From the NCBI GenBank assembly GCA_964404765.1, contig CAYOLL010000004.1, forward strand, positions 1 through 34,314: a DNA stretch of 34,314 nucleotides. The letters run 5' to 3'. Shown here in pieces: positions 607 to 27,987 of the stretch (the first letter of the stretch is position 1; each line of letters begins with the position of its first letter). Origin of the DNA: an uncultured Gemmatimonadota bacterium (lineage in GTDB: Bacteria > 4572-55). The notes beneath the pieces were generated by a model, which worked only from the letters and a program-made list of their open reading frames with translations, did not search any database and was not told the origin of the DNA. The translations under genes and the position numbers were made by a program.

Positions 607-2409
607 TTATCCGGTAAAACCCGCCGCTCGCAGCGCTTTCCACAAATTTGTGCGGCGCTGGTGGTCAATCCGCCAGCGAGCGATGAGGTTTTGGCAGCCA
701 ACGGGGTCAATTTCCTGAATAACCATCAGCCAACCGGCATGGGGCGTGTAATCGGATTTGTGATGCGCGTTAGGGTCCGGAGCCAGCAGAACGACGTGTT
801 TACGCCAGCATTCGCAAAGCGCGGCGCTGAATCGTCCGCCGTCCAATCGTCGCAGCCACTGCTGTCGCGCCGCGATCAGTTCATCGGTCCGATCCGGCCG
901 ACCCATAAGCGCTAAGAGACGCGGGAACGGCACATTATCGCCGGACAGGGCGGCCAGGTCACAGGTAAGCAAGCGAACGGTCTTTTGCTGATCCGAAAAA
1001 GCCACGCCATCCACGCGGAGTTGCGCCAGCCAACCCTCCATCTTCAACATAAACGCGCTTTTGTCATCGTTAAGTCCCGCCTGAAGCAGCCAATTGACCC
1101 ATGTATCTTTGGTTTCTTTTTTCCGTTCCCCAAAACCACCCGGCAACGAACGGTCATACATGATGTTGCGCCATTGCTCCGTCAAGGTCATGATCGGCGG
1201 TCGTTCCCGATGTTGCCGGTAAAAATCGGCAATGTTATCCCAGGCAAATGGCGTGGCATATAGCATTTTCTGGTAGCGCAGGCTTAGCGTGCGTTCACCC
1301 AAATTCAGCTTTTCGGCAACTGAAATCCAATCCGCAAGCAGGTCGGTGATAGTTGAGTTGGGCTCGCCGGAGCCGTAGATAGCGCCGGAAGTCAGCATTT
1401 TTTGCTCCGGCTGCCAATCTTCCACCCGGCTGTAGCCGCTGCTTTTGGCATAGCTGGCGATGGTCTGCATATACAGCTTGTTGACCTCCGGTAAGTTGCC
1501 TTTTTTCGTCAGGTCGGCGATCAACGGGGGACCGCATTGCCAGTTTTGGGCCAAATTCAGCCGGCACAGGTCCAGGTGGGCGTCTTGATCGAATTTTTGC
1601 GCATAGTCGCGATAGATTTCGTTCCAGCGACCATGGGCGGACGTCAACTTTTGCTTCCAGTCAGAAGAGTCCTGATTGGCTCGAATGTGCTCGAATATCT
1701 GTTGCTGTTGATCAGCCGGCAAAGTTGTGGTGAAAAACACATGGTAAGCTTGCCAATCCAGACTGCAATGGCTCAGCTCATTTTCAAGTTTCAACAGACG
1801 CTCCAGAAAAGTCAGGACGGATTCCTGACTATTTTGCGTCACCAACCATTCCCATTTTAACAAACATTCGGTAGTGATTCGCTCAAACGCGCAAGGTTCG
1901 GCATCGGCGCACATCCATTCGGGATAGCTGTCAATACTATCATTAATTGCTTGGAGTTCATCGGCAAAACAGTCGTCATCCTCTTGCTCCAGGGCAAACA
2001 CCTCTGCGAGCATGGGCGTCATTTTAGCGGCAATCTTCTCCAAATCCTCGGCCAGGGCACACGGGTCAAAATAGGGCTCTTCCCAGTCCGCCTCTTGCTG
2101 AACATAAGCGCCGTCCTCTTCACCCACTTCAGAAGCCACATTGCTCCATTGACGCCACAGGTCGCGCCATTCAGCAAAGAGCTTGTCATCCGAAACGACG
2201 CGCGTTTTGCTTGCGGTTACGGCCTGTGGCGTCAGTAGCCGTTTCAGGGTGAGGGAAATGTCCGGATTGAGCGATTCGAGCAATCGTTTGATTTGTTCAG
2301 GTTGCAGTAACTTAAAGGTCGCATTCAGAACCTCCCGGATTTGCTCATGGGTCAGGGCATTAAACAAATCGTCGGTTTTAGCGGTATTCGTTTTTTCATT
2401 TTGGGTCAT
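607..2409 (-). CDS. Hypothetical cytoplasmic protein (600 aa, acidic, Trp-rich), no recognisable domain
   Basis: A long ORF with an AAGGAAG RBS 6 nt before the ATG at 2409 (MTQNEKTNTAKTDD...). I found no TM segments and no known catalytic motifs. Confidence 0.55.
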   Translation of the reverse strand: MTQNEKTNTAKTDDLFNALTHEQIREVLNATFKLLQPEQIKRLLESLNPDISLTLKRLLTPQAVTASKTRVVSDDKLFAEWRDLWRQWSNVASEVGEEDGAYVQQEADWEEPYFDPCALAEDLEKIAAKMTPMLAEVFALEQEDDDCFADELQAINDSIDSYPEWMCADAEPCAFERITTECLLKWEWLVTQNSQESVLTFLERLLKLENELSHCSLDWQAYHVFFTTTLPADQQQQIFEHIRANQDSSDWKQKLTSAHGRWNEIYRDYAQKFDQDAHLDLCRLNLAQNWQCGPPLIADLTKKGNLPEVNKLYMQTIASYAKSSGYSRVEDWQPEQKMLTSGAIYGSGEPNSTITDLLADWISVAEKLNLGERTLSLRYQKMLYATPFAWDNIADFYRQHRERPPIMTLTEQWRNIMYDRSLPGGFGERKKETKDTWVNWLLQAGLNDDKSAFMLKMEGWLAQLRVDGVAFSDQQKTVRLLTCDLAALSGDNVPFPRLLALMGRPDRTDELIAARQQWLRRLDGGRFSAALCECWRKHVVLLAPDPNAHHKSDYTPHAGWLMVIQEIDPVGCQNLIARWRIDHQRRTNLWKALRAAGFTG

Positions 2410-2625
2410 AATGCTTCCTTTTTTATGAGGAGTGATCGCTTGTTCATGTTCAGCCAAGGGTAGCCTGACAGAATCTAAGCATAGATAGTGCAACAGGTCA
2501 AGAAGTTCCGATATAGAGAATGATTTTTCTTGAATTCAGGTTGGATAATGAAGCAGGCTGTGAGGAGGAAAAGAAAGCGGATTAAAAGAGGCGTCACCTT
2601 TTTCGTGCAAACCGGTCTATTAAAA

Positions 2626-3489
2626 TTAAAGCAGAAAAGAGTCGATAATCAGCGCAAAAAAAAGCCCGAGCAAATAAACAATAGAATAGCCGAACAACTG
2701 CCAATGCCGGGTCGGTGTGGGATTCTGCCAATCCCGATAGGTTTTGAAGATAAAAAACAGGCCGCACCCGACAGCAACCACCAGATAGAGCAAGCCCGCA
2801 GTCAGATAATAAAGCAGCAGGCTGACGACCACCGTCGCCACGGAATAAAGCCACATTTGGCGCAGAGTAGTTATGTCGCCCTTGATCAATGGCATCATCG
2901 GGTAGCCGACTTCGCGATAATCTTCTTTGTAATATAATGCCAGCGCCCAAAAATGGGGTGGCGTCCACAAAAATATAATAAGAAACAACAAAATTGCCGT
3001 CCAGCTCAATGAATTGGCCGCGGCAGCCCAGGCAATCACCGGACCCATGGCGCCGGCTGCTCCACCGATAACAATATTTTGCGGCGTCGTCGGTTTGAGC
3101 CATAAGGTATAAAAAAAGCTGTAAAACAAGATAGTTCCGACTGCCAACGCCGCGCTAAACCAGTTAAAAGCCATAGCAAAAATAAGTACGCCCGCTACAC
3201 CAATGCCAATCGAGAAAATCAGGGCTTCGTTCGGTAAAATACGCCCGGACGGCAGCGGTCGCTTTGTTCGTGTCCGGCTCATGCGCGCGTCCACGTTACG
3301 CTCAAAATATTGATTCATGGCATTGGCACAACCTCCGGTTAAATACAAGGCGAACAATGCGGCGAAAAACCGAGCCGGGTCGGCGAGCAGACTTTTTTCC
3401 AAAAATAAGGCCGTCATACCGGTTATCACTACCAGCAGCATAATGGACGGCTTGGTTAATTGGAAGCAGGCTTTAATTTTTTTCAACAT
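2626..3489 (-). CDS. ctaB: Protoheme IX farnesyltransferase (heme O synthase), UbiA family
   Basis: A polytopic membrane protein with CyoE/CtaB hallmarks: LTKPSI..LLVV, NQYFERNVDARMSRTRTKRPLPSGRI, and WTPPHFWALAL. Confidence 0.9.
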   Translation of the reverse strand: MLKKIKACFQLTKPSIMLLVVITGMTALFLEKSLLADPARFFAALFALYLTGGCANAMNQYFERNVDARMSRTRTKRPLPSGRILPNEALIFSIGIGVAGVLIFAMAFNWFSAALAVGTILFYSFFYTLWLKPTTPQNIVIGGAAGAMGPVIAWAAAANSLSWTAILLFLIIFLWTPPHFWALALYYKEDYREVGYPMMPLIKGDITTLRQMWLYSVATVVVSLLLYYLTAGLLYLVVAVGCGLFFIFKTYRDWQNPTPTRHWQLFGYSIVYLLGLFFALIIDSFLL

Positions 3490-4120: not shown

Positions 4121-4280
4121 ATTGACTCCTTCATTCATTGCCCTCTTCAATTTTCGGCTTGCAGCATGGTGTCACTTTGGACTCCGACATACCGGCATAA
4201 TGGCTTAACCGAAACCCACGTTTTTTGAAAAGCATTGGTATCTTCAATAAAAATATAAAATTTTTTTTAAAAGTCAACTT

Positions 4281-4348
4281 AATAGACTTGACAATCTATT
4301 AAAAATATATAATTTTGGATTTACAAGTCCATAGACATTGAAATCTAT
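4281..4348. promoter_or_regulatory. Two dyad-symmetric sites ATAGA-N8-TCTAT: AATAGACTTGACAATCTATT at 4281-4300 and ATAGACATTGAAATCTAT at 4331-4348. They overlap candidate -35 elements (TTGACA at 4288-4293, TTTACA at 4320-4325).
   Basis: Inverted repeats read in the AT-rich divergent region between the Rrf2 gene and the HCO-like gene. They are positioned as operators over a plus-strand promoter. Confidence 0.4.
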
Positions 4349-4371
4349 TGAAATTTGAAAGGACGGCGACC

Positions 4372-5778
4372 ATGCAAACTTCAACCAAACTGACCGAACA
4401 ATGGCTGCGAATTGCCATCGGTTCCCTGATTCTGGCCGGATTGCTTTCGCTCATTCTGGTGATTGGGCGGATGCCGTATCTTAGCCAATTTATCACCGAC
4501 CCGCAGTTTGCCAAAAAATGCCTGGTGATCCATGTGAACCTGGCCATTTTTGTCTGGTTGTTCTCGTGCCTGACCGCGCTGTTCAACCTGATTCCGGCGG
4601 GCAAGCCGCTTGAGTTCAAAACACACACCGCGCCGGTGGCGATGCTGGGTATCGGTTGCTTTGTGATCAGCGCCGCCTGGCCGGAGGCGATGCCCATCCT
4701 GTCCAACTATATTCCGGCCATTGATCATCCGCTGTTTTTTATCGGCATTGCCCTATTTTCGCTGGCCGTGGCGATCAATTTGGTCGACCGCCGTTTATTT
4801 AGCGGCAGTAACGCCGGACTCCCGACGCATAACGCTACCGCAGGACAGATGAGCCTGAGTCCAGTGACCGTGGACGGTTTGCGCGGGGCGGGTTTGGCCG
4901 GATTACTGGCTTTCGCGGTTATCTTGATTACGGCCTGGCGGATTGACGCTAATTATACGCCAACGATGTACTACGATCTCGTCTTTTGGGGCGGCGGTCA
5001 TGTTATGCAATTTGCCAATATCCTGGGTATGCTGTCGGTCTGGTTGATTTTGCTGGAAGCATCCACCGGCCTGACGCCGATCTCGCAAAAAGCGGCGCGG
5101 GGACTTTTTGGCTGGCTGCTATTGCCGCTACTCTTCACGCCATTTCTGGCCTGGCAGGTTAACACGCCTTTTTATCAGAAAAGTTTTACCCGTCTGATGC
5201 AATGGGGCATATTTCCCGCCGTGTCCATCTTCCTGATCATCTGTCTATATACTGTATATCGCGCCTATCGCACCGGAAGAATAAGCCGCAGCGCCTTCCG
5301 TCATCCGGCGTTCATGGGCTTTGCTGCCAGCGCTGGCCTGACCTTGGTAGGGTTTGGGCTGGGGGCGATGATTCACCGTGTGGATACGCTGATCCCAGCG
5401 CATTATCATGCGGCGATTGGGGCTGTCACTGTGGCTTATATGGCAGTCGCGTATCGGGTGTGGGCGGCGCTGGGTTATCGGATTCAATCGCAGCGGCTGA
5501 CGCAGGCGGCCGGCTGGCAACCGGCGCTGTTTGGCATCGGCCAGGCCGTATTTGCGGTCGGCTTTGGGTTAGCCAAAATGGCCCGCAAGGTATATGGCGA
5601 CGAGCAGATTATACAAACCGCCACGCAACACGCCGGCCTGGTGTTGATGGGAATTGGCGGTTTTATTGCAATTGCCGGTGGAATTACATTTATCTGGATT
5701 ATTGCCGGCCTTATCTATCGCTATGAGCCTGCGACTTCGCATTTTAATTCGGAACTGAAAGTTGTCGTTAAGTCTTAA
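4372..5778 (+). CDS. Heme-copper oxidase subunit I-like membrane protein, a divergent paralog lacking the helix-VII His-His CuB ligands
   Basis: A polytopic TM protein that aligns with the downstream subunit I. It has a helix-II His (LVIHVNLAIFVW), WGGGHVMQF (compare WWGLGHVSQQ), G..MIHRVDTLIPAHYHAAIGAVT (compare GTEQINIIAHNTLRIPGHFHATVVGGS) and GLAKMARKVYGD (compare GSYGVPRRHYDV). It has no HH motif. The ATG is at 4372, after a GGA RBS. Confidence 0.6.
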   Translation: MQTSTKLTEQWLRIAIGSLILAGLLSLILVIGRMPYLSQFITDPQFAKKCLVIHVNLAIFVWLFSCLTALFNLIPAGKPLEFKTHTAPVAMLGIGCFVISAAWPEAMPILSNYIPAIDHPLFFIGIALFSLAVAINLVDRRLFSGSNAGLPTHNATAGQMSLSPVTVDGLRGAGLAGLLAFAVILITAWRIDANYTPTMYYDLVFWGGGHVMQFANILGMLSVWLILLEASTGLTPISQKAARGLFGWLLLPLLFTPFLAWQVNTPFYQKSFTRLMQWGIFPAVSIFLIICLYTVYRAYRTGRISRSAFRHPAFMGFAASAGLTLVGFGLGAMIHRVDTLIPAHYHAAIGAVTVAYMAVAYRVWAALGYRIQSQRLTQAAGWQPALFGIGQAVFAVGFGLAKMARKVYGDEQIIQTATQHAGLVLMGIGGFIAIAGGITFIWIIAGLIYRYEPATSHFNSELKVVVKS

Positions 5779-6098: not shown

Positions 6099-6623
6099 AT
6101 GAGTATTTACTCACCCGCGTCGGGCTGGTTTAAGGCGCCCGAAGGCGCCGAACGGCTGTGGATTGGCATCGCTTTAATTTGGTGCTTGATTATGTTTATC
6201 GCCATGCCTTATTGGCATTTTAAAGGGAAACAGAACAGTACCGGCGAGTCATATCGTGTTGATCCGAAAGCGTTTAATGAACGCATCGAAAAATATGTTC
6301 AGACGAATAAAGTTGGCGAAGAATTGGGCATTCCGGTCGTGGAAGCCGCGCCCGGCGGTGATGTTTATCTGCTCGGACAAATGTGGCGCTGGTATCCGAT
6401 TCTGAAGCTAAAAAAAGATCAGACCTATCGACTGCACATCTCGTCCATTGACTTGCAGCATGGCTTTTCGCTGATGCCAATGAACATGAATTTTCAAGTG
6501 CTGCCGGGTTATGACCATGTTTTGACCATCACGCCAACATCAACCGGCATCTTTCCGATTATTTGTAACGAGTTTTGCGGTATCGGTCATCACATGATGA
6601 CTGGCCGGATTATTGTAGAATAA
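6099..6623 (+). CDS. Heme-copper oxidase/NOR subunit II with cupredoxin domain and a complete CuA site
   Basis: An N-terminal TM is followed by a cupredoxin domain. The CuA ligand pattern is H(QHGFS)...C-N-E-F-C-G-I-G-H-H-M-M, i.e. C-x-E-x-C-G-x2-H-x2-M. The 174-aa size resembles ba3-type subunit II. An AGGAGG RBS precedes it. Confidence 0.85.
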   Translation: MSIYSPASGWFKAPEGAERLWIGIALIWCLIMFIAMPYWHFKGKQNSTGESYRVDPKAFNERIEKYVQTNKVGEELGIPVVEAAPGGDVYLLGQMWRWYPILKLKKDQTYRLHISSIDLQHGFSLMPMNMNFQVLPGYDHVLTITPTSTGIFPIICNEFCGIGHHMMTGRIIVE

Positions 6624-6722: not shown

Positions 6723-8435
6723 ATGGGAAATTTTTTACCAAATCAAATGCGTACGTGTGATACGACGCGGCTACCCGTTTGTCTGACGGCGCAGCTATTT
6801 ATCCGCGCTCATGCCGTATTTGCCGTTGTCTATTTACTGGTGGGCGCGATTGCCGCGCTACTATTGGCCTTGACGCGCTGGTCGGCGGTCCATCTGCTGC
6901 CTGCCGATTGGTACTATCGCATTTTGACTTTACACGGTATCAACATGCTGATTTTTTGGATGCTATTTATGGAAGTAGCGATTCTCTATTTTGCCAGCAC
7001 AACGCTGCTTAACTCACGCACTTTTTCCAAACCAATGGGTTGGGTCGGTTTTGTGCTGATGGTTGTAGGCTCGCTCATGACCGATTGGATGATTTTAACC
7101 GGCAAGGGCGATGTATTAATGACCTCATACGTGCCGCTCAAAGCGGATCCGATGTTCTATCTGGGCATCATTTTGGTAGCCGTCGGTGTCTTGCTGGGCA
7201 TTGTTAATTTTTTTGGAACACTCTATATCGCTAAACGGGATCATACTTATACCGGTTCGGTGCCATTAGTCACTTTTGGCGCATTGGCCGCGGCCATTAT
7301 CGGCGTGCTGACCATTTTGCATGGCGCGGCCATCTTGATCCCGACAATGCTCTGGTCAATGGGTTTGATGCCGGTCCCGGACGCGGGCGTTTATCGTCTG
7401 ATCTGGTGGGGACTGGGCCATGTTTCGCAGCAAGTAAATGTCTGTGCGATGGTTTCCGTGTGGTACTTTCTGGCCACGCTGACTGTCGGCGCGCGCCCGC
7501 TAAACGAAACCGTCTGTCGCACGGCTTTTATTCTCTATATTTTATTCATCAACTTAGCTTCGGCGCATCATTTATTGGTCGATCCCGGTGTTGGAGCTAC
7601 CTGGAAAATATGGAACACTTCCTACGCTATGTACCTGGCTGTATTAGCCTCGCTGATTCACGGCTTCACCGTGCCGGCATCGGTCGAAGTGGCCCAGCGC
7701 ATGAAAGGCTACACTCGCGGCATGTTCCAATGGCTGACTTCCGCGCCGTGGGGCGATCCGGGCTTTTCCAGCTTCTTCCTGTCGCTGACAATTTTTGGTT
7801 TTATTGGTGGTATTACCGGAGTGACGCTGGGCACTGAGCAAATTAATATCATTGCTCACAATACGTTGCGTATTCCCGGTCACTTCCATGCCACAGTGGT
7901 CGGCGGCTCAACGCTGGCTTTTATGGGTTTAGCCTACTATGTGGTTCCGCTGATTTTTCAGCGTGAGTTTTATTTAAAGGGCGTTGCTCGGGTGCAGCCG
8001 TACATTTTTGCCGCCGGTATTGTTATGCTGTCATTCGGGATGTCCTTTGCCGGTTCATACGGTGTGCCGCGCCGCCATTATGATGTTGATTTTACCGGGG
8101 CGAATATTCCGGCCGGTTTCGACTCTGCCGCACACTTTATGTTAGGGATTGTCGGTATTGGTGGAACTCTGGCTTTCATTGGGGCATTGATTTTTGTTCT
8201 GCTGGTGGTGGCGGCTGTCTTTTTTGGTAAATCCAATGTCGGTCAGCCCATGTCCGCCTGGCAATCTGCGGATAATCTGAAAATGAACGCCAACGTGCTG
8301 TCCCGGCCAATTGATGAGGCCATTGCGCATAAAGTTCCGGGTACTGTCACTTTAACGCTTGTCTTATTGGTATCTTTTGTGGTATACTATTTTGCTAACT
8401 GGAAAGCGTTGGCAGATGTCTGGTTTGTGCGGTAA
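6723..8435 (+). CDS. Heme-copper oxidase superfamily subunit I (B-family-like; putative NO reductase catalytic subunit)
   Basis: It has 12 or more TM helices with a helix-II His (LHGINMLIFWMLFMEVA), the helix-VI CuB His in WWGLGHVSQQVNV, the helix-VII HH in ASAHHLLVDPG, and the helix-X heme ligands in GHFHATVVGG. The 570-aa size is close to ba3 subunit I. Gln replaces the Tyr of the GHPxVY motif. An AGGAGG RBS precedes it. Confidence 0.9.
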   Translation: MGNFLPNQMRTCDTTRLPVCLTAQLFIRAHAVFAVVYLLVGAIAALLLALTRWSAVHLLPADWYYRILTLHGINMLIFWMLFMEVAILYFASTTLLNSRTFSKPMGWVGFVLMVVGSLMTDWMILTGKGDVLMTSYVPLKADPMFYLGIILVAVGVLLGIVNFFGTLYIAKRDHTYTGSVPLVTFGALAAAIIGVLTILHGAAILIPTMLWSMGLMPVPDAGVYRLIWWGLGHVSQQVNVCAMVSVWYFLATLTVGARPLNETVCRTAFILYILFINLASAHHLLVDPGVGATWKIWNTSYAMYLAVLASLIHGFTVPASVEVAQRMKGYTRGMFQWLTSAPWGDPGFSSFFLSLTIFGFIGGITGVTLGTEQINIIAHNTLRIPGHFHATVVGGSTLAFMGLAYYVVPLIFQREFYLKGVARVQPYIFAAGIVMLSFGMSFAGSYGVPRRHYDVDFTGANIPAGFDSAAHFMLGIVGIGGTLAFIGALIFVLLVVAAVFFGKSNVGQPMSAWQSADNLKMNANVLSRPIDEAIAHKVPGTVTLTLVLLVSFVVYYFANWKALADVWFVR

Positions 8436-8956: not shown

Positions 8957-9044
8957 TCTGTGAATTCGAGACTCGGTCAAAATTTTTTAATCAGTTTAGT
9001 GATAAATGGATATATTTTTCCTTTATCTGCAAAGCGAGGCTCCT

Positions 9045-9992
9045 ATGAAAATCATCGAAAATATACAGCAATTCCTGATTGGCTGGCGCTTTCCGGTGAT
9101 GATGGTGTCCATGCTGCTTTTTTTCAGCCTGGAGTTATTTATTGTCCTGTTGATTCCGGCTTCGAGCGGGGCGGCGGCACAGTTTGCCGAAGATTTTAAA
9201 ACCTGGTGTTTTGGCTATGACCCGGCTACGGGTAAACTGGAATGGGGTTATGTGATTATGTTTCTGATTCAGCCCTTGATGATGTGTGGCGTAATCATCA
9301 TGGTTTGGATCAAGCCGCTCAAGGAAGTCTGGCAAGATCGTCCGACTCAGACGGTGCCGTATCTGGTCAGTTCGGCTACGATTGTGCTGGCCCTGGGTGT
9401 AAGCCTGACGCTGATGGTTGGCGCGGATGCCCGCGCTGCCGATGAGCAATTGCCTTTTCCGGCTGAGGCGCTGCGCACGGAACTAAACCCGATCCCATTT
9501 TCGCTGATGAATCAGGATAGCGCCGTTGTGAGCCTGGAATCGTTAAAAGGCCGGGTGACGCTGATTACGGCAGTTTACGCCCGCTGTGGCTATACGTGCC
9601 CGATGATTTTGGCGCAAACGCGTCGGGTGATGAGCTCCCTGACGCCACAGGAATTGAAAGAGCTTTCGATTCTGGGCATCACGCTCGATCCGGAGCATGA
9701 CGATGTCGCCGTGCTGCGGGAAATGGCCGCCGGTCAACAAGTCAAGACGCCGCTGTTCCATTTTCTAACCGGCGAATCAGCCTATGTTAACCAAACCCTT
9801 GATATGTATGGTTTTGCCCGCAAGCGCAATCCGGAAACCGGGGTGATCGACCACGCCAATCTTTTTTTATTAATTGATCGGCAGGGCAAAATCGCTTATC
9901 GCTTTTCGATTGGCAAACGGCAGGAAGATTGGCTGGTTCACGCCATACGCATGTTGATTAAAGAAAAAAAGGGTTCGGGTGTCGCGGCATGA
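9045..9992 (+). CDS. SCO1/SenC-family copper chaperone with an N-terminal polytopic membrane extension
   Basis: The C-terminal thioredoxin-like domain carries YARCGYTCP (the CxxxC copper site) and a downstream DHANLFLLIDRQG (conserved His). The N-terminal 140 aa contains 3 to 4 hydrophobic helices. A GAGG RBS precedes it. Confidence 0.8.
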   Translation: MKIIENIQQFLIGWRFPVMMVSMLLFFSLELFIVLLIPASSGAAAQFAEDFKTWCFGYDPATGKLEWGYVIMFLIQPLMMCGVIIMVWIKPLKEVWQDRPTQTVPYLVSSATIVLALGVSLTLMVGADARAADEQLPFPAEALRTELNPIPFSLMNQDSAVVSLESLKGRVTLITAVYARCGYTCPMILAQTRRVMSSLTPQELKELSILGITLDPEHDDVAVLREMAAGQQVKTPLFHFLTGESAYVNQTLDMYGFARKRNPETGVIDHANLFLLIDRQGKIAYRFSIGKRQEDWLVHAIRMLIKEKKGSGVAA

Positions 9993-10053
9993 CCTGAAAA
10001 ACTCGTGACAGGCCACAAAGGCACGAAAACACTAAGTTTCACGAAGTTTGTTA

Positions 10054-12207
10054 ATGTTTTATGTCTTCAGCGCTTATGTTTGTGAACAATTCACCCGGAA
10101 AATTATGCGCCCACGCCCCATCATTACCCATGAGGATATACCACAACTAAATGCAACGCATGTGCGTGATGCCCGGTCCGAACCACCGGTGCGTGGCGAA
10201 GCTCTGCTGACCCAATTAGATATGCAGTTTACCCGGCTAAACCGATGGGTTAAGGCTGTCGTCCCTGATGCACTTAATCCGTTTACGCAGATGGGCGCCG
10301 TGGCGGATACGATGTTTATCGTTGCCATTATTAGTGGTATCTTGCTGTTGTTTTGGTATAAGGCCAGCGTGTTTCAGGCCTATGATTCGTTAGAAGCGAT
10401 GCGGCATAATTGGCCGGCGCAGTTAGTGCGCTCAATCCATCGTTATAGTTCGGACGGTTGTTTGCTCTTTGTCATTTTACATGCATTGCAAATTCTGGGA
10501 GCACGCAAGTTTGGCGGTGTGCGCTGGCTGGCCTGGGTTTCCGGTGTGGCGCTGGTCTGGCTGTTATGGGTAGATGGCTGGACGGGTTATTGGCTGGTTT
10601 GGGACGTGTCGGCGCAGCAAGTAGCGCTTGGCACCGCGAAATGGTTAGATGTGCTGCCGATTTTTGCCGACCCTTTATCACGTTCTTTTTTAACTGACGA
10701 CAGCGTCAATTCGTTATTCTTTTTTGTGGTGTTTTTTATCCACATGCTGCTGCCGCTGGTCATGGGTGTGGCGTTGTGGATTCACATTATGCGCTTAAAT
10801 GATTCGCATTTTCTGACCAATCGCAAGTTGACCGGCATTTTGCTTACGGCGCTGGTAATGGTTTCGCTTCTCTTTCCGGCTCTATCGGCTGAACAAGCGG
10901 CCATGCAAATCGCGCCACAATCTTTCAAGATGGATTGGTTTTATTTATTACCGCTGATTGTGACGGATCGTTTACATGGCGGTGGTTTGTGGTTAGTTAC
11001 CGTCATTTTTACGGTTGCTTTTTTTAGTGTGCCGTGGGCTATGGCCCGACAACGATCCGCGCCGGCAAAGGTCAATCCGGAACGCTGTCACGGCTGCACA
11101 CAGTGTTTTCAGGATTGTCCATTTAACGCGATTACGATGCGCCCGCGTGATGGTAAGCATCCGGTTGTATCCTATATTGATCCGGATAAGTGCGTGGGCT
11201 GCGGCGTGTGCGTCGGCTCGTGCGATCCCTGGGCAATTGAGTTTGATGCCCTGCGGCAGATGGATGTGCGCAAATGGATTCGTCAGCGGCTCAAGATCGA
11301 AACTGCTGATCCGCGTCACGTTGCTTTTGTTTGCGCCGATTCTGCCGGGGCGGATTTACAACTGAATGCCGCCGGGGAGTGCGCTGAATTGACTGGCTAT
11401 CGAATCGTGCCTGTGCCGTGTGTAAGCTGGCTGTTTGCGCCCATGATCGCGCAAGTATTGCGGGCCGGTGTGCCGGGGGTGATGGTTGTGGGTTGCGGAC
11501 CAAACGAAATTTGTCGTAAAGGCAACCGTTGGACGGCCGAACGTCTGGCTGGAACCCGCGAGCCTTATTTACTGATGACACCTTCTGCGGCCGCAGATCA
11601 TGATGAAAGTGATCTGGTTGGGCGGATTCGATATATACGCTACGATCGATCGCAGAAGGCGGAATTTATTGCCGACGCGCAGGATTTTCGGGCCGGAAAA
11701 GTGACTGCGCCAAAAGTGTCCGCCCGGCGTTGGGCAAACGTGGTGGTTATTTTTCTTATCTTAGCTGGGGCGATCATTACATTGAGTCGCATGCCCTATC
11801 GTCCGCCACAGTTGGAAACCGCGGAATTAGTGATCTCTTTCAAACATCCGGGGCAGTTGGTCGAGCAGGTTACGGCTTCCGCTGCCGATCAACAAAATAT
11901 ATTGCCGCACATGCGTGGCGGCGCCTCTAAAAAGAGGTTACGTACGGCGGTTCGTTTGCAGGTATTCGTCGATGGCGCAGAAAAAGTCAATCAAACACTG
12001 GCTCCACGCGGTCTATTTAGCGATGGCGCTAGCATTGCCATTGAAAAAATACCGCTATTGGAAGGTCGCCATCTGGTTAAAGTGCGAGTAGGCGATTCGG
12101 CTAATCCGGATGAATGGCAATTTTCTGATTCGCGCGAGCTGGATTTTAAAATAGCAACGCGACGTGTAGTTTTGTTCAGCAAATCGGCGGGATTTAAATG
12201 GTATTGA
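10054..12207 (+). CDS. Multi-domain membrane electron-transfer protein: di-heme cytochrome b (N-terminal), 2x[4Fe-4S] ferredoxin, an MvhD/FlpD-like domain, a TM helix and a C-terminal about 150-aa domain
   Basis: Two H-x13-H pairs in TM helices ([16 protein letters not shown] and [16 protein letters not shown]) match the cytochrome b heme bL/bH ligands, alongside an R..H..A...F motif. [12 protein letters not shown] and [12 protein letters not shown] are two 4Fe-4S motifs. [10 protein letters not shown] ... [37 protein letters not shown] resembles the methyl-viologen-reducing hydrogenase delta subunit domain. The start is uncertain: the ATG at 10054 and the ATG at 10105 both lack a clear SD, and the TTG at 10048 is also possible. 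Confidence 0.7.
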
Positions 12208-12359
12208 TCAAATAGATTTGCACAAGTTTCAAATTTTAGCGCACTTGCGTGCTAATAATGGACATGTAAGTCTATTATTATATTTTGTTTGCTACTTTAA
12301 TTCACAACGCGAGTTTGTGAGCTCGCACAATATCAATCTAAGGGAAGGAGTACGGGTTA

Positions 12360-13846
12360 TGGGAACAAAAAAGGGGTTGTTTTTCGGAACAGCGATGGTG
12401 ATTTTGACGCTTTCGTTATCGCTTATTTACTCATGTAATGAGCAGCAATCGGCACAATCAAAGTCAAGTGGGAGTAGCAGTAAAGCAGACAATGGGCTCG
12501 TTAAGTTGGAGCCGGTGGCCGTACAAGGCGAGGAAGTGGCAGTCTTAACCGATCCACCGATGGTGCCGCCACCGATTACGCGCACCAATGCGACAAAAGT
12601 GATTGTCAATCTGGAGGTTATTGAAAAAACAATGCGGATTGCCGACGGAGTGATGTATACTTTTTGGACATTCGGCGGGACGGTGCCTGGCAAGTTTATC
12701 CGCGTGCGTGAAGGCGATTTTGTAGAGTTTCACCTGAAAAATCATCCGGAAAATAAGTTGCCGCATAATATTGACTTACATGCGGTTACGGGACCTGGCG
12801 GCGGCGCAGCCTCCTCATTTACTGCCCCGGGGCACGAGTCGGTCTTTTCGTTTACGGCGATGAACCGCGGCTTGTATGTCTATCACTGCGCGACGGCGCC
12901 GGTAGGTATGCATGTGGCCAACGGCATGTATGGCTTGATCTATGTTCAGCCAAAGGAAGGCTTGCCGCCGGTTGACAAAGAATACTATGTTTTCCAAAGC
13001 GATTTTTACACCAAAGGCGCGTATGGCGCAGCCGGTCTGCAACCCTTCAGCATGGAGAAAGCTTTGCAGGAACTGCCGGATTATGTGGTTTTTAACGGCT
13101 CCGTCGGTTCGACAACCGGCGATAAGGCGATGACCGCCAAAGTCGGCGATAAAGTGCGCCTTTTTGTTGGCAATGGCGGCCCGAATATGGTCTCTTCCTT
13201 CCACGTTATTGGCGAAATTTTTGATAATGTTTATGAAGAAGGCGGCGATCGGGTTAATCATAACGTGCAGACAACAATGGTTCCGGCGGGCGGCTCGACG
13301 ATCACCGAATTTGTGTGTGAAGTGCCGGGCACGTTTATCCTGGTTGACCATTCCATTTTCCGGGCGTTTAACAAAGGCGCTATCGCGATGCTAAAAGTCG
13401 AAGGCGCTGAAAATAAAACGATCTACTCCGGTAAGCAGGATGATCGTATCTATCAAGGTGAAGGTTCTGCGGTGCAGGAAATGCCGGGGGGAGCTGTTGT
13501 CGAAGCGCCCGCAGCCAAGACCAAAGAGGAGCGTATGGAGCGCGGACAAAATGTGTATAAATCCATTTGCATTGCCTGCCATCAGGCCGAAGGTCAGGGT
13601 ATGCCGGGCGCATTCCCGCCATTGGCCGGTTCGGACTTCCTGAATGCTGACAAGAACCGCGCCATCAAGACGGTAATGAACGGCTTGGAAGGTAAGGTGA
13701 CGGTTAACGGCGCGGATTACAACGGCATCATGCCCAAGCTGAACCTGACAGATGAAGATATTGCCAATGTTGTTACCTATGTGCTGAATAGCTGGGGCAA
13801 TAGCGGCGGCGAGATTACGCGAGATGATGTGAAGAAACTGCGGTAG
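12360..13846 (+). CDS. nirK: Copper-containing nitrite reductase (NirK) with C-terminal mono-heme cytochrome c domain, lipoprotein
   Basis: The lipobox is LSLSLIYSC. The type-1/type-2 Cu ligand motifs are [13 protein letters not shown] and [18 protein letters not shown]. The two-cupredoxin length fits NirK. The C-terminal [19 protein letters not shown] is a CxxCH heme c site. A GGAAGGAG RBS precedes it. The ORF-track start at 12218 is a TTG far upstream. Confidence 0.9.
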
Positions 13847-14141: not shown

Positions 14142-17100
14142 ATGCAAGACCTTGAAAGTCTTAAAAGCAAGGCTGCTTCAGAGCTGACGCAAGCGCTGCC
14201 TTTGGTGGATAAATCTGTTGAAAAAAGCTCACCCAAAAGATTGGACGCAACGGCCTATAGCGCTATGCCGCCGGCGATTGCCGAAATGTGCCAGCGTTAT
14301 GGTCGCAAGAAAAATGCGGCGACTCGTCTGGAAGTTTTGCTGCAATGTTTTGACGCCCTACAGATTCATGTTACCTGCTTGCTGTTGGCTGATTATTTGA
14401 ATAGCGCCGGTGTTGATACCGACTTAAACGATTTACTAAGTGACTATCTGGCCGAGTCTGAAATCAGCGCTATTTTTTTCTATATACTGCTGGAACAATA
14501 CCGTGCCAGCAATAGTGGCCATTTCTTTGCCCGTCAGAAAAATCAACTAATGCCCGCCGTGCCATTTGAAGATTGGGAAATTGCTTATAAAAACATCAAT
14601 TTTTCGAATGCGCAACAATCCCTTGATCTTTTATTTCCCCGCATCAGCAAACAATTTGAGCTGTTTCGATTTTTAAACCAGTATCCTTTGTTTGTCGTGC
14701 GCGCCTATGATGAAGAGCGGGATGCCTATCAGGTGGATTGGTTACTGCAAAACAAAAGCGACTGGATTTCTTCAAAAAAAGATGAGCCGCTTATTCTCAA
14801 CCGACTTTATCTGGCAGACGAGGCGGGTTCCCTGTCGTTGCACCCGTTATTGATTACAGCCAAGTGTCCGAAGTGCCAGCAGGAGCACATTTTTTATTTT
14901 CAAAAAATTAATCGTGAAGCGCTTGTCTATTTCAATTTTGAAGATTTTCATACGCTCTCCATAACGGATGTCTCCGTTATGAGTGAACTGGGGAATACGC
15001 TGGCTCAGAAGAAAGCATACAGTCTGGCAGTACAATGCTTTGAAGTTATTTTGCGTATTCGACCCAATGACAAAACCGCCCGTTCGGGGTTGTTTGCGAC
15101 CCATAATCTGTATGGCGTGCAGCTTTTTGAGGCCAAAAAATTTGAGGAGTCCGGTGAGCAGTTTCGTTTAGCCTTAGTCTTGCGTGCCGATGTCAGCCAG
15201 GTTTATTTTAACCTGGCTACGGCGTATCGGAAGAGCAAAAATTTTAGCGGCGCACTGGAAACAATTGATCGACTATTGGAACGGCAGCCGAGTCTTACGA
15301 AAGCCTTGGAAGCCAAAGCGCAGATTCTGGAAGAGTACGGTCAGCATGACGAAGCCTTAAAAATCTATGAGACCGCCTTAAAATCCGATCTGGCATACAA
15401 ACGTATTTTTACTTCCTGGCGACGGTTAAGCGACCAAATTGCTATGCCGCAAGCTACGCCGGTTAAAAAAGACGACAAAAAAGCCGATAAAAAAACCGAC
15501 AAGCCGGAAAAGAAGGAAGATAAAAAATCGGCATTAGAAATTTTGACCCGTGATGTAATGGAATACGTTAAAAAAGAAGCCGTTGAGCCGATTTTTGGAC
15601 GGGAAAAAGAATTGGGCGAGATTATGGAAATTCTGACCTGCCATAATAAAAACAACGTCATACTGGTGGGTGAGTCCGGTGTTGGCAAATCGGCAATTGT
15701 CGAGGAGTTGGCCCGTCGGGTGATCCGCGAGGATGTGCCGCAGCGCCTCAAGGGTAAGCGCTTGCTGGAGCTTAGCACAACCACGCTGGTGGCCGGAACA
15801 AAGTTTCGCGGCGAATTGGAAGAGCGAATTCTAAGTTTAGTGGATGAAATTAAGAGTGATGGCAGTATTATTCTTTACATTGACGAGATATCCAGTATCG
15901 TTCACGGCGGTTCCTATCGCGGCAGTACTGTGGAAATTTCCGGTGTTTTAAAGCCCGCCCTGGCGCGTGGCGAAATCCAGTGCATCGGCACGGCGACACT
16001 CGACGAATATCGTCGCAATATCGAAAAAGATCAGGCACTGGAACGGCGCTTTCAAATTGTGCATGTTGACGAGCCAAGTGTTGATGAAACATTGTCGGTG
16101 CTAAAAATTACGGTTAACAAGTTTGAGACTTTCTACGGTGTGCATTTTGATGATGAAGCCATGCGTTTAGCAGCAGAGTTTGCCAAAAATTTTTTGCGGG
16201 ATCGGGCCTTGCCGGATAAAGCCCTGGACTTGCTTGATCGCGCCGGGGCAAGTGTGGCCTATGCCGCACAAAACGACCCAAATATTCCGCCCTATGTGAC
16301 GCCGGACGATATGATTCGGATTGTATCCAAGATCAGCGGTGTGCCGGTTAATAAAATCGACCAATCCAATGCTGAGCGCTACCAGAACATGGAGTCTATT
16401 TTGCGTCGCAAAATTGTCGGTCAGGATGCGGCAATTGATCAGGTTTGCCGTGTTATCCGTACGAATCGCATGAAGTTTAAGTTGAATCCCAGCCGTCCGG
16501 AGGGTGTTCTGCTTTTTCTTGGCCCTACCGGGGTAGGCAAGACCGAGCTGGCCAGAATGCTGGCTGAGTTTCTGTTTGGCAGTGTTGATGACATGATTCG
16601 GATTGATATGTCTGAGTTTTCTGATCGCATTGCCACGACCAAGTTGGTTGGCGCTGCGCCGGGTTATGTGGGTTACAATGATCCTAATCAATTGACGGAT
16701 CGGGTGCGAAACCACCCTTATACGCTTGTTTTATTAGATGAAATTGAAAAAGCTGATTCGCAGGTTCTCAATATTTTTCTGCAGGTTTTTGACGCCGGTC
16801 GCCTGACGGATTCCAAAGGCCGCGATGTGGCTTTTAATCACACAACCGTTGTGATGACATCCAATATTGGTTCCGAGTTGTTTTTTAAAACGACTATCGG
16901 TTATGGGGATAATCGCAACGGCGGTTCTTCCGGGAAGGCTGTGGCGGTTTCCACGCAGCAACTGATGCGGCAGCTTCAGAGCCGGTTGACCCCGGAATTT
17001 TTGGGTCGGATCGATGAAATTGTTGTCTTTAATCCGCTGATGCTGGACGACGCCAAAAAAATTGTTGAATTGCGGCTTAAGGCGATTCATGACCAATTGC

Positions 17101-17318
17101 ACTTGGAGGAAAAAACGCTTTTTCTGTATGATTCCGCGCTTGAATTTTTGGTGGAAGTCGGTTTTGATTCGGAATTTGGCGCGCGCAATTTGGACAAGAC
17201 AATTCGTCAATATTTGTTAGACCCGTTGGCGCGGAAAAAGCTGCAGCCGGATTGGATGTCCGTCCACGAAATCAGCGTCGCGCGGCAAGGGCAGAATTTA
17301 CAAATTATTATGAAGTGA
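14142..17318 (+). CDS. ClpA/ClpC-like double AAA+ unfoldase with a novel about 470-aa N-terminal TPR-containing domain and a Lys/Asp-rich linker
   Basis: D1 carries GESGVGKSAIVEELARRV, Walker B ILYIDEISSIV and TKFRGELEERI. D2 carries VGQDAAIDQV, LFLGPTGVGKTELARMLAEFLF, IRIDMSEFSD and LVLLDEIEKADSQVLNIFLQVFDAGRLTDSKGRDV. It has no long M-domain, so it is ClpA-like rather than ClpB-like. A possible ClpP-docking IGY tripeptide lies in D2. The N-terminal region has TPR-like repeats and a KKDDKKADKKTDKPEKKEDKK linker. An AAGGA RBS precedes it. Confidence 0.8.
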   Translation: MQDLESLKSKAASELTQALPLVDKSVEKSSPKRLDATAYSAMPPAIAEMCQRYGRKKNAATRLEVLLQCFDALQIHVTCLLLADYLNSAGVDTDLNDLLSDYLAESEISAIFFYILLEQYRASNSGHFFARQKNQLMPAVPFEDWEIAYKNINFSNAQQSLDLLFPRISKQFELFRFLNQYPLFVVRAYDEERDAYQVDWLLQNKSDWISSKKDEPLILNRLYLADEAGSLSLHPLLITAKCPKCQQEHIFYFQKINREALVYFNFEDFHTLSITDVSVMSELGNTLAQKKAYSLAVQCFEVILRIRPNDKTARSGLFATHNLYGVQLFEAKKFEESGEQFRLALVLRADVSQVYFNLATAYRKSKNFSGALETIDRLLERQPSLTKALEAKAQILEEYGQHDEALKIYETALKSDLAYKRIFTSWRRLSDQIAMPQATPVKKDDKKADKKTDKPEKKEDKKSALEILTRDVMEYVKKEAVEPIFGREKELGEIMEILTCHNKNNVILVGESGVGKSAIVEELARRVIREDVPQRLKGKRLLELSTTTLVAGTKFRGELEERILSLVDEIKSDGSIILYIDEISSIVHGGSYRGSTVEISGVLKPALARGEIQCIGTATLDEYRRNIEKDQALERRFQIVHVDEPSVDETLSVLKITVNKFETFYGVHFDDEAMRLAAEFAKNFLRDRALPDKALDLLDRAGASVAYAAQNDPNIPPYVTPDDMIRIVSKISGVPVNKIDQSNAERYQNMESILRRKIVGQDAAIDQVCRVIRTNRMKFKLNPSRPEGVLLFLGPTGVGKTELARMLAEFLFGSVDDMIRIDMSEFSDRIATTKLVGAAPGYVGYNDPNQLTDRVRNHPYTLVLLDEIEKADSQVLNIFLQVFDAGRLTDSKGRDVAFNHTTVVMTSNIGSELFFKTTIGYGDNRNGGSSGKAVAVSTQQLMRQLQSRLTPEFLGRIDEIVVFNPLMLDDAKKIVELRLKAIHDQLHLEEKTLFLYDSALEFLVEVGFDSEFGARNLDKTIRQYLLDPLARKKLQPDWMSVHEISVARQGQNLQIIMK

Positions 17319-21405: not shown

Positions 21406-23394
21406 TTAACGCAACAACACAGTTCGCGCAGTCATCAAGCCGGCGTTTGTTTGCAAGCTCCAAAAATAAATACCATTAGCCAGTTGACGATTATCCTGTG
21501 ACTGTCCATTCCAGGACAGATTATGCTCGCCGGGTGAAAGCAGTTCTTGGTCAAGAATCGTGCGCACCATGCGACCGGCGCTGTCATAAATCCGCACGGT
21601 TGCCGTTGAAGCCGCCGGCAAGTAAAAAGCCAGCGTGGTTTGATCGGAAAACGGATTCGGATGGCTTGCTTGCAAACTCGGGCGGGCGGCCGCATTTTCA
21701 ACAAATACATCGTGCTCGGGTGATTGCCAATTGCGTCCATCGGCAAAGAGCGCTTCTATAAAATAGCGATAGGCAAAGCCGGATGACGGGTGATCTTCAT
21801 ACATGACGGTTGTTGGCGCTAAAATCGGTGATATGCCAGAATAATCTGCCGCGGGACCAATGCCTTGCCGATGAACACGAATGCCGGTAATATGGGTCAA
21901 ATCCGACAACTGCCAGGCAAGCTTGACGCCCGGACCATTCATCTGCGCCTGAAAAGAGAGCAATGTTAAAGCGGCTACGCGCTGATAGTTTATCGCCGCC
22001 ACGACATCAATGATACCCCAGCCGAGCAGCGTATCCGGGTGGGTGGCCTGGCTGGCGGTCATCATCAGCGCTTCGCGGATTTGCATCATCGTCCAATCGG
22101 GATGGGCTTGCAAAAGCTGGGCGGCGCAGCCGGCCACTAACGGCGACGACAAAGACGTTCCGCTAAGATTATAATAGCCAATTGCACTGCGGGCGCGGGC
22201 GCAGCGCGTACTAACGCCACGAGCCATAACCTCCGGTTTAAGCCGGCCGTCGGCGGTTACCCCGTCAGAGTTGAAACTCGCCCTGGCGCCGGTTGCATCG
22301 ACCGCTCCAACGGTTAAGATGCTGTCGGCATCGGCCGGCGCGCCCAGAAACGGGTGGGTCGGGTCGCCGCCGCTATTACCCAGCGAGACGCAGATGACGA
22401 CGCCAAGACCGGCGGCAATATCGGCGGCGCGGGTGATCGGCGCAGTATCGCCGTCCATTTGCGCATAAGTATACCAGTCCAGGTAGCTCAACGAGCTATT
22501 GGCCACATCTGTGCCCAGGCCTTCCGCCCATTCAATGGCCGCAATCCAGTAATCTTCTTCAACCGGTGTTTCGTTGGGTAAGTCCTCGGTTTTGGCCAGA
22601 ATGAAGTGGGCTTTATAGGCCGGACCGATGAGCTTTCCGTCGGCATAACCACCCAAAGTTGACCAGGTCGCCGTGCCATGATCGTGTTGACCGCTCACAT
22701 CGTTGGCCTCATTTTGCACATTGCCGTCATTGAAAATAAAATCATGCTGCGCCAGTAAACGCCCTTCGCTGAGAATGGCGGCAAAGGATTCGTGGGTCAG
22801 ATTGTAGCCCGTATCAAGCATCGTAACAATCACCCCAGCGCCGTTATAACCAAGCCGATGGGCATTGACGGCATTGATCTGATTCAGTTGGTCAAATGAC
22901 AGGCCGTAGTTTAAATCTGCCGGCGTGGCCATGACTTCAGCAGGTGTTTCCACTAATTCCGGCCGTTTGAAGCCCAATACCGGCTGAATGCGGCTGACAA
23001 AGGGCAGAGCGGCGATTTGAGCCAATTGCTCCCGGGTTGTTACCAGGCTGATGGCATTTAACCACTTACTGGTTTGGACTATCCTTGCGCCGGTTCCAGC
23101 CAACCGTGCCGAATAATCCGCCGCCACCGGCAGGTCAAGCTGCGAAACACCCGGCTTTTGACCGCGTTTATGCCGTCGTTCAATCGCGCGATCAGTCAGA
23201 CCTAATTCGGCTAACGACATTGTGGCAGCGCTCGCTTGGGCATTTTCTGTGCTCTTGTCCGTTAAAAAAACCCAGACTTTCAGCTCTGACTGACCCGTCA
23301 GACGTTCATAAACCCGGCTGTCGATTTTTGACGCCATGCCGGATGAAACCCAGCCCAGAATGGCAATAAGAACGGCTGCTACTGTAATTCGCAT
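21406..23394 (-). CDS. Subtilisin-family (S8) serine peptidase with C-terminal T9SS sorting domain
   Basis: It has a signal peptide. The catalytic triad motifs are VIVTMLDTGYN (Asp), HDHGTATWS (His) and LSGTSLSSPLVAGCAA (Ser). The C-terminal NPFSDQTTLAFYLP...VRIYDSAGRMVRTI...WNGQ..ANGIYFWSL... is a T9SS type-A sorting domain. Confidence 0.85.
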   Translation of the reverse strand: MRITVAAVLIAILGWVSSGMASKIDSRVYERLTGQSELKVWVFLTDKSTENAQASAATMSLAELGLTDRAIERRHKRGQKPGVSQLDLPVAADYSARLAGTGARIVQTSKWLNAISLVTTREQLAQIAALPFVSRIQPVLGFKRPELVETPAEVMATPADLNYGLSFDQLNQINAVNAHRLGYNGAGVIVTMLDTGYNLTHESFAAILSEGRLLAQHDFIFNDGNVQNEANDVSGQHDHGTATWSTLGGYADGKLIGPAYKAHFILAKTEDLPNETPVEEDYWIAAIEWAEGLGTDVANSSLSYLDWYTYAQMDGDTAPITRAADIAAGLGVVICVSLGNSGGDPTHPFLGAPADADSILTVGAVDATGARASFNSDGVTADGRLKPEVMARGVSTRCARARSAIGYYNLSGTSLSSPLVAGCAAQLLQAHPDWTMMQIREALMMTASQATHPDTLLGWGIIDVVAAINYQRVAALTLLSFQAQMNGPGVKLAWQLSDLTHITGIRVHRQGIGPAADYSGISPILAPTTVMYEDHPSSGFAYRYFIEALFADGRNWQSPEHDVFVENAAARPSLQASHPNPFSDQTTLAFYLPAASTATVRIYDSAGRMVRTILDQELLSPGEHNLSWNGQSQDNRQLANGIYFWSLQTNAGLMTARTVLLR

Positions 23395-27330: not shown

Positions 27331-27987
27331 TTATGACAAAACATCTTCTACTTTGATTGAAAATCCTTCCAACAATTTCGATGGCACTGCCGGCTTGCCT
27401 GGACCGACCTGGCTTGCAAACAACTCATAAGCGCCGTCGGTCAGTGCATAAACTTCTATCGCCTGCCAAGCCGGATCGATAATCCAATATTCCTTGACGC
27501 CGAATTTCTGATACAAAGCCATCTTCGTGTTGCGATCTCGCTGGATGGATGACGGGGAAATAATTTCGACGATCAAATCCGGCGCACCGACAATGCCGTG
27601 CGGGGCAATAATCGAACGATTGGCTTCGGCGATAAACACAATGTCCGGCTGGATCGTGTTTTCGTCGGATAAGATTACGTCAATGGGCGCGTGAAACACT
27701 TGTCCCGATTTATTCATCCGCACTAATTGGGCGAGACGCAATAATACATTTAACGAGGCGTTTTGATGATCCGTTGATGGCGCAGACATAGCAATTAACT
27801 CCCCATTTATGATTTCATAACGCTTGTCATCCGGCAGGGTCAAATAGTCGGTGTACGTCCATCTTTTGGTGGGGACGAACGGCTTTGCCGGCGCAACAAC
27901 CGCAGGCTTATTGAGATATGGCGCGGGCGCTTTCTTTTTCCGTGCTTTTGCCGTCGGGGAAACGGCGGCTTGTTCCAAAATTGCCAT
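27331..27987 (-). CDS. Uma2-family (DUF820) putative PD-(D/E)xK endonuclease with Lys/Pro/Ala-rich N-terminal tail (copy A)
   Basis: YEIINGELIAMSAPSTDHQ...HAPIDVILSDENTIQPDIVFIAEAN...GAPDLIVEIISPSS...KMALYQKFGVKEYWIIDP...IEVYAL matches the Uma2 family. The N-terminal AKARKKKAPAPYLNKPAVVAPAKPFVPTKR tail is unusual. A GGAGG RBS precedes it. Confidence 0.8.
   Translation of the reverse strand: MAILEQAAVSPTAKARKKKAPAPYLNKPAVVAPAKPFVPTKRWTYTDYLTLPDDKRYEIINGELIAMSAPSTDHQNASLNVLLRLAQLVRMNKSGQVFHAPIDVILSDENTIQPDIVFIAEANRSIIAPHGIVGAPDLIVEIISPSSIQRDRNTKMALYQKFGVKEYWIIDPAWQAIEVYALTDGAYELFASQVGPGKPAVPSKLLEGFSIKVEDVLS

Follow-up and report, generated by a model that had tools for sequence, protein, structure and literature searches.

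Candidate operators of an Rrf2-family regulator shared by an eNOR-type operon and nirK in an uncultured Gemmatimonadota bacterium

The window, i.e. the whole analysed stretch of 34,314 bp from an uncultured Gemmatimonadota bacterium, carries a respiratory island in which the gene of an Rrf2-family regulator stands back to back with an operon for an eNOR-type heme-copper enzyme, followed by nirK (Table 1). The first operon gene, with AAAGGA at 4358-4363 ahead of its ATG at 4372, encodes an HCO-like membrane protein that matched no family in Pfam or NCBIfam; its homologs show weak PF00115 matches, and the closest of them (46-47% identical) come from Calditrichota. The protein is a paralog of the downstream subunit I (25% identical) and retains the His of helix II, a single CuB His (GGGHV), and the HxH heme ligands. 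It is also the conserved first gene of eNOR-type operons in related loci from many phyla (L001-L080). The 66-aa ORF behind it can be regarded as a real small gene because it is conserved in most of these 80 loci. The best PDB matches of subunit I are B-type oxidases, and its GHVSQQ stretch aligns with GHPVVY of 7DEG. Replacement of the cross-link Tyr by Gln is a recognition criterion for eNORs (PMC8756737), and subunit I, as far as its sequence tells, carries the eNOR signature, i.e. this Tyr-to-Gln exchange together with an adjacent cupredoxin subunit II. The eNOR of Rhodothermus marinus is a demonstrated NO reductase (PMC11214002). At the operon end lies a 719-aa fusion protein with two 4Fe-4S ferredoxin motifs and a FlpD part resembling a hydrogenase delta subunit, which may feed electrons into the eNOR-type enzyme. 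For nirK, the ribosome binding site and a lipoprotein signal peptide mark 12359 as the true start. With NirK and the eNOR-type enzyme in one island, the route from nitrite to NO to N2O is thus encoded.

Table 1. Genes and candidate regulatory elements of the island, with positions in the window.
Feature	Position	Strand	Evidence and remarks
Rrf2-family regulator gene, 150 aa	3668..4120 (ATG at 4120)	-	PF02082, TIGR00738; divergent from the operon
Candidate operator O1, ATAGACTTGACAATCTAT	4282..4299; extended palindrome 4279-4302		28.1 bits; around the -35 hexamer
Predicted -35 hexamer TTGACA of the operon promoter	4288..4293	+	N6 spacer of O1; alignment with relatives
Candidate operator O2, TTGGATTTACAAGTCCAT	4315..4332		19.1 bits; 33 bp from O1; -10/TSS region
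Candidate operator O3, ATAGACATTGAAATCTAT	4331..4348		24.3 bits; at about +17
HCO-like membrane protein, 468 aa, first operon gene	4372..5778	+	divergent from the regulator gene; without the His-His CuB pair
Small ORF, 66 aa	5835..6035	+	tblastn 44-67% identity, same position in most of 80 loci
Heme-copper subunit II, COX2/cupredoxin domain	6099..6623	+	PF00116, partial TIGR02866; 55-78% identity across phyla
Heme-copper subunit I, 570 aa, B-family-derived	6723..8435	+	PF00115 at 3e-64
SCO1/SenC copper chaperone	9006..9992	+	PF02630 at 2e-21; conserved in the operon
Cytochrome b / 4Fe-4S ferredoxin / FlpD fusion	10048..12207	+	PF00033, PF00037, PF02662; conserved position
Candidate operator O-nirK, ATGGACATGTAAGTCTAT	12258..12275		29.5 bits, top score in the window
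NirK with C-terminal cytochrome c fusion, lipoprotein	12359..13846	+	TIGR02376 at 355.9 bits (cut-off 296.3); PF00034

Several other genes surround the island. Beside the regulator gene lies a minus-strand gene for a UbiA-family prenyltransferase (2626-3489), probably a heme O synthase, which would fit the heme a-type cofactor of eNOR; UbiA genes linked to the operon or to rrf2 were also seen in L030, L057, L081, L088, L094, L100, and L162. It is followed by an ORF of 628 aa without a family match (607-2493, minus strand). Directly after nirK, a protein of 1058 aa (14142-17318, plus strand) combines N-terminal TPR repeats with a ClpB-like double AAA+ module, an unusual architecture. Further along, the minus strand carries a subtilase with a Por_Secre_tail (type IX secretion) sorting domain (21406-23394) and two tandem genes for Uma2-family putative endonucleases (27331-27987 and 27997-28656). 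The sorting domain of the subtilase suggests a host from the FCB group, in agreement with best hits of Calditrichota type.

The regulator scores 93.8 bits with PF02082 (cut-off 30; 1.2e-26) and 103.7 bits with TIGR00738, the Rrf2 superfamily model (cut-off 73.3). An original prediction, made from the DNA letters of this stretch, had described it as an NsrR/IscR-type Fe-S protein. The Fe-S part of that description stands: all 37 adjacent homologs have the pattern Cys92-x6-Cys99-x5-Cys105, which shows no change across 16 aligned orthologs, and three such Cys, placed in the linker behind the wing, point to an Fe-S-type Rrf2 protein. The family assignment has to be changed, however, as the protein reaches 39.2 bits with the NsrR equivalog NF008240 (cut-off 182) and 73.1 and 52.1 bits with the IscR equivalogs TIGR02010 (cut-off 207.55) and NF008110 (cut-off 275), lies far under the RirA and CymR equivalog cut-offs, and has a different operator. 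Judged by these scores, it is the ortholog of neither NsrR nor IscR. The best-scoring solved relative in the PDB is IscR (3e-9), followed by NsrR (8.6e-6), both of them distant. Moreover, His108 is invariant across orthologs and aligns with IscR His107, and the recognition helix PxHYLSKxxR is invariant or nearly so. Position 8 corresponds to NsrR Asp8, the fourth [4Fe-4S] ligand, which comes from the partner subunit; it is occupied by Glu, also a carboxylate, in the window protein and in most, not all, orthologs. Ser43 takes the place of IscR Glu43.

The original prediction started from two ATAGA-N8-TCTAT dyads in the divergent intergenic region, and both are exact: AATAGACTTGACAATCTATT at 4281-4300 holds the core at 4282-4299 with no mismatch, and the dyad at 4331-4348 likewise has none. 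Their distance is 49 bp from start to start (with a gap of 31 bp between them) instead of the 50 bp claimed, while the placement of the second dyad just upstream of the 4372 start was right, its end lying 23 nt 5' of the ATG. The claimed overlap of the first dyad with a TTGACA -35 hexamer also holds, since the hexamer forms its N6 spacer. Allowing up to one mismatch, the pattern occurs three times in the 34,314 bp against 0.35 expected, and none of 100 dinucleotide shuffles of the window reached three matches. The third match lies upstream of nirK, one of the promoters suggested in the original prediction as places to look for further sites.

A wider comparison was based on a scan with an alignment of the HCO-like protein as query and one genome per species, which gave 80 loci from many phyla with the same operon order in about 70. 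In 37 of them a homolog of the window Rrf2 protein (mostly 41-60% identity) is encoded divergently and directly upstream; these pairs occur in Calditrichota, Balneolaceae, Myxococcota, Planctomycetota, and Verrucomicrobiota. An unbiased enumeration of every k-mer/gap/reverse-complement dyad in the 37 Rrf2/HCO-like intergenic regions ranked (A)ATAGA-N8-TCTAT(T) top, with 8 sequences against at most 2 in shuffles, and ATGGA-N8-TCCAT appeared as a variant. With up to one mismatch, ATRGAC-N6-GTCYAT was found 50 times in 664 kb, and 36 of these sites fell inside the 9.6 kb of the 37 intergenic regions. These 36 sites, all from other genomes, were used for a 24-nt symmetric matrix (TyAATRGAC-N6-GTCYATTrA), in which the flanks outside the selected core are conserved too (T at -2, 0.76; A at 0, 0.85).

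At a threshold of 12 bits or more, the 37 intergenic regions contain 50 sites against 0.03 in dinucleotide shuffles, and a site is present in 29 of the 37 Rrf2-positive loci versus 10 of the 39 Rrf2-negative loci with enough upstream sequence (Fisher p = 4e-6), counts that are partly circular because the matrix was built from 36 of the same sites. Elsewhere in the Rrf2-positive loci only five more sites were found, among them two before a second rrf2 paralog and two upstream of nirK in Fodinibius halophilus (L045). In two 21-kb loci, matrix matches were confined to the Rrf2/HCO-like gap. As a refutation check, the original prediction had named a lack of conservation in orthologous intergenic regions; the check was run, and the dyads proved to be conserved across phyla, in favour of their role as operators of the adjacent Rrf2 protein. 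Regulator gene and site are not strictly coupled, given that 8 of the 37 Rrf2-positive loci have no site at the 12-bit threshold and the 10 Rrf2-negative loci have one; in the latter, the regulator could be encoded elsewhere in the genome. A nirK-proximal site was seen in the window and in L045 only, and in the extended loci L161 and L162 nirK was not found within 10 kb of the operon.

A variant operator, AnAGAT-N6-ATCTnT, occurs in L022, L025, L035, and L062, which are deltaproteobacterial/Spirochaetales-labelled MAGs, in the form of long overlapped palindromes (e.g. ACAGATAAACAGATCTTTAGATCCGTTTATCTGT) about 120-170 bp upstream of the HCO-like gene. In L035, a canonical-type site (ATAGACGTCAAAGTCGAT) lies closer to the rrf2 start, and L022 and L025 are similar. 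The Rrf2 proteins of L022, L025, and L035 have Ser/Pro in place of the recognition-helix His40, with L062 as the exception.

Because the matrix holds no window sequence, the window serves as an independent test. It contains exactly four sites, all in the two regulatory gaps of the island (O1 to O3 and O-nirK), and its next-best score of 11.5 bits is within the range of window shuffles (maximum 15.5). None of 2000 dinucleotide shuffles of the AT-rich intergenic region upstream of 4372 reached 19 bits, compared with the observed 28.1, 24.3, and 19.1, and the same number of shuffles of the AT-rich gap before nirK likewise gave no score of 19 bits. A chance origin of the dyads is thus ruled out by dinucleotide shuffles for both pattern count and matrix scores. 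O2 and O-nirK had been absent from the original prediction, and its pairing of the two dyads needs revision: both are real, but the conserved partner of the first is O2, and the dyad at 4331 is an extra third operator. O3 starts 16 bp after O2 and shares 2 bp with it, and O-nirK is found in the gap of 151 bp that precedes nirK, at a distance of 84 nt from the ATG. O2 shares its left arm, TTGGA, with site 2 in three Calditrichota loci (L003, L007, and L009). At and upstream of the rrf2 start there is also a direct repeat, CATTGCCCTCTTCAAT (4136-4151) and CATTGGTATCTTCAAT (4233-4248), 81% identical and 97 bp apart, which may be due to chance.

Promoter hexamers were assigned by match, through an alignment of 20 loci on site 1. 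All 20 keep the positional equivalent of O1, and its N6 spacer reads TTGACA or TTGnnn. In these relatives a -10-like hexamer (TATAAT, TATATT, GATTAT, or TAAATT) follows 17 bp after the -35, and its final two nucleotides are the first two of site 2, which explains the modal spacing of 33 bp between adjacent sites (11 of 21 pairs). Consequently, site 1 covers the -35 with its centre near -33, and site 2 covers the -10/start region with its centre near +1. O1 and O2 of the window retain this geometry, with a -10 that is weak or oddly placed, either AATTTT at 4311-4316 (17-bp spacer) or TATAAT at 4308-4313 (14-bp spacer). A sigma-70 consensus scan did not call a plus-strand operon promoter in the window because this TATAAT is only 14 bp from TTGACA. 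A Bacteroidota-type promoter, TTG-N19-TAATTTTG at 4310-4317, is a candidate fit by eye, and around the nirK site a convincing -35/-10 pair was not found. Further, two promoter-like matches on the minus strand (4277 to 4250 and 4331 to 4304) abut or lie inside operators; as consensus matches only, they are compatible with autoregulation of rrf2. The overlapped 16-bp tandem of O2 and O3 recurs in L072, L005, and L045, and among looser 2-mismatch pattern matches (not PWM hits) also in L035 and L022, there in the form AnAGAT-N6-ATCTnT. Sites spaced by 33 bp, about three helical turns, would share one face of the DNA and those spaced by 16 bp would lie on opposite faces, so that joint occupancy of the latter seems sterically plausible.

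In a second scan, metagenomes were searched with the Rrf2 protein as anchor, and the loci fell into orthologs of at least 45% identity (L081-L106) and distant Rrf2 proteins (L107-L160). For 23 orthologs the upstream sequence was 120 bp or longer, and 13 of them have a site within 300 bp upstream, compared with 5 of 54 distant Rrf2 loci, in which the sites are weak. The site-bearing orthologs include loci without any HCO-like gene, and the dyads hence go with this Rrf2 subfamily whether or not that gene is there. In L099, two sites are again 33 bp apart. Neighbours of the orthologs include NnrS (L091, L102) and, in L083, L091, and L104, heme d1 biosynthesis genes (for a NirE-like methylase, a radical-SAM NirJ-like protein, a cytochrome d1-domain protein, and NirDL); a hypF gene adjoins the ortholog in one locus. 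No site was found in L026 and L027, whose adjacent homologs have a different recognition helix (AAFLAKILR). Comparing the recognition helix by eye with the operator variants (ATAGAC, ATGGAC, AGAT) revealed no clean co-variation. Two Rrf2 paralogs of the window subfamily are present in each of L011, L021, and L091, with a site upstream of each; in L091, nnrS comes after one paralog, and the other is oriented divergently to the gene for the NirE-like methylase. From these patterns, the Rrf2 regulator encoded next to the dyads very likely uses them as its operators.

The reading we favour, at a probability of roughly 0.6, is that O1-O3 and O-nirK are operators of the divergent Fe-S Rrf2 protein acting as a repressor, with the holo-form occluding the promoter and NO as the likely releasing signal. 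The 24-bp palindrome has a size that would fit one Rrf2 dimer, and by analogy with NsrR, IscR, and RsrR a cluster-bearing dimer would occupy each of the four sites; DNA binding and repression are known from the holo forms of Fe-S Rrf2 proteins (PMC11672702). With O1 around the -35, O2 over the -10/start, and O3 at about +17, RNA polymerase would then have no access to the operon, whose products are the eNOR-type NO reductase together with the HCO-like protein, SCO1, and the cytochrome b/ferredoxin protein. The single site O-nirK would put nirK under the same regulator, which probably also limits its own synthesis, given that the sites lie in the shared divergent region. Modification of the cluster would release the protein from the DNA and turn the genes on, and this modification would most likely be nitrosylation by NO. 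We infer physical binding, repression over activation, the cluster type, and the signal, with NO suggested by regulon content only, as the regulon makes and consumes this gas. NO sensing is not implied by the protein itself, where His108 is IscR-like and the Asp8 position is Glu, and sensing of O2 or redox state would agree with the data just as well.

These two residues, together with the fact that expression of the R. marinus eNOR needed microoxic conditions and that its heme a cofactor is O2-dependent (PMC11214002), make oxygen, redox state, or Fe-S cluster status the main rival signal, with the same regulator and operators timing eNOR and NirK expression to microoxia. We regard this as rather unlikely but by far the weightiest of the alternatives. 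The Cys3+His ligand set aligns with that of IscR, IscR and RsrR use [2Fe-2S] clusters to sense Fe-S status and redox (PMC11672702), and the hypF gene beside one ortholog would suit such a role. On the other hand, all other conserved neighbours and site-bearing genes deal with nitrite or NO (NirK, NnrS, the eNOR-type enzyme, and the synthesis of heme d1 for NirS), and no isc or suf genes were nearby in any locus examined.

The other two alternatives concern the mode of action and the identity of the binding protein. IscR can activate transcription (PMC11672702), and the poor -10 of the window would be typical of an activator-dependent promoter, at which the Rrf2 protein might bring in RNA polymerase or shift its position, as is known of apo-IscR at certain promoters; yet sites over the -35, the -10/start, and +17 have the geometry of steric repression, and in the relatives they overlap near-consensus -35/-10 pairs with 17-bp spacers that need no activator, which leaves activation improbable. 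Still less credible is a different transcription factor, e.g. a CRP/FNR-type NO or O2 sensor, with the Rrf2 gene as a merely frequent neighbour. The Rrf2-negative loci with a site upstream of the HCO-like gene would agree with it, and TTGAC in site 1 superficially recalls FNR/HcpR half-sites. The FNR and HcpR boxes were nevertheless rejected as a match, since their consensus scores below zero with the matrix and their arms are spaced by N4 versus N6 here (GAC to GTC). Besides, the sites accompany Rrf2 orthologs into loci without the HCO-like operon and are largely absent beside distant Rrf2 genes, and no other regulator gene is consistently adjacent.

Returning to the favoured repressor reading, a bolder version of it would see here a switch that responds to NO (or NO/O2) and is dedicated to eNOR-based aerobic denitrification across five or more phyla, consisting of a previously undefined Rrf2 subfamily with IscR-type Cys3His ligands, an NsrR-type regulon, its own operator AATRGAC-N6-GTCYATT, and a fixed dual-operator promoter. 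This we put forward only tentatively. If true, the eNOR family would thereby gain its first assigned regulator, and Rrf2 proteins would have converged on NO sensing in a second way. eNOR-type reductases have only recently been shown to reduce NO and are estimated to make up a large share of environmental NO reductases (PMC11214002). Our literature searches found no description of eNOR regulation, and nothing relevant came up when Rrf2 was combined with either the motif string or eNOR. The operator/regulator pair thus offers a direct handle on eNOR regulation, and the matrix allows a prediction of the genes that switch together with eNOR in uncultured Calditrichota, Balneolaceae, Myxococcota, and others. 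F. halophilus is a cultured carrier in which such a regulon prediction is testable. Because the arrangement is mechanistically that of an ordinary Rrf2 repressor, i.e. a conserved, conventional on/off switch for genes of nitrite and nitric-oxide respiration, its value lies in annotation and regulon prediction and not in a new principle.

In Bacteroidota and marine Alphaproteobacteria, Rrf2 genes have been described as neighbours of nod and of clade II nosZ (10.1101/2023.11.21.568154; PMC6264515). The likeness is that N-oxide respiration genes outside the classical model Proteobacteria have an adjacent Rrf2 gene; the difference is that only gene adjacency was reported there, and operator, promoter architecture, and subfamily definition were not given. 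With IscR, the [2Fe-2S] Cys3His Rrf2 regulator of Fe-S biogenesis, the window protein shares the ligand pattern, as Cys92/99/105 and His108 align with IscR Cys92/98/104 and His107. Neither the window nor the 160 related loci examined contained isc or suf genes, and the IscR type 1 operator consensus scored negative with the matrix and was rejected as a match.

The closest parallel in regulon and logic is NsrR, the NO-sensing [4Fe-4S] Rrf2 repressor of hmp, nirK, nor, and nnrS in Nitrosomonas, E. coli, Neisseria, and Streptomyces. Both regulators belong to the same superfamily, have three equivalently spaced Cys, adjoin their targets, and share a palindromic operator of about 20 bp overlapping promoters, a regulon of nirK, NO reductase, and nnrS, and the predicted logic of a holo-repressor released by cluster chemistry. 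They differ in the operator, which in NsrR is gATGyAT-N5-ATrCATc (PMC1274295) and was rejected as a match here (the NsrR consensus scores -18 and -16 bits with the matrix, against 30 for the consensus of the motif described here), in the Glu at the Asp8 position, and in the invariant IscR-like His108. The window-type regulator is found in Calditrichota, Balneolaceae, Myxococcota, Planctomycetota, and Verrucomicrobiota and stands over an eNOR-type operon. The Rrf2 subfamily and its operator are new, and the kind of switch is one that is already well understood.
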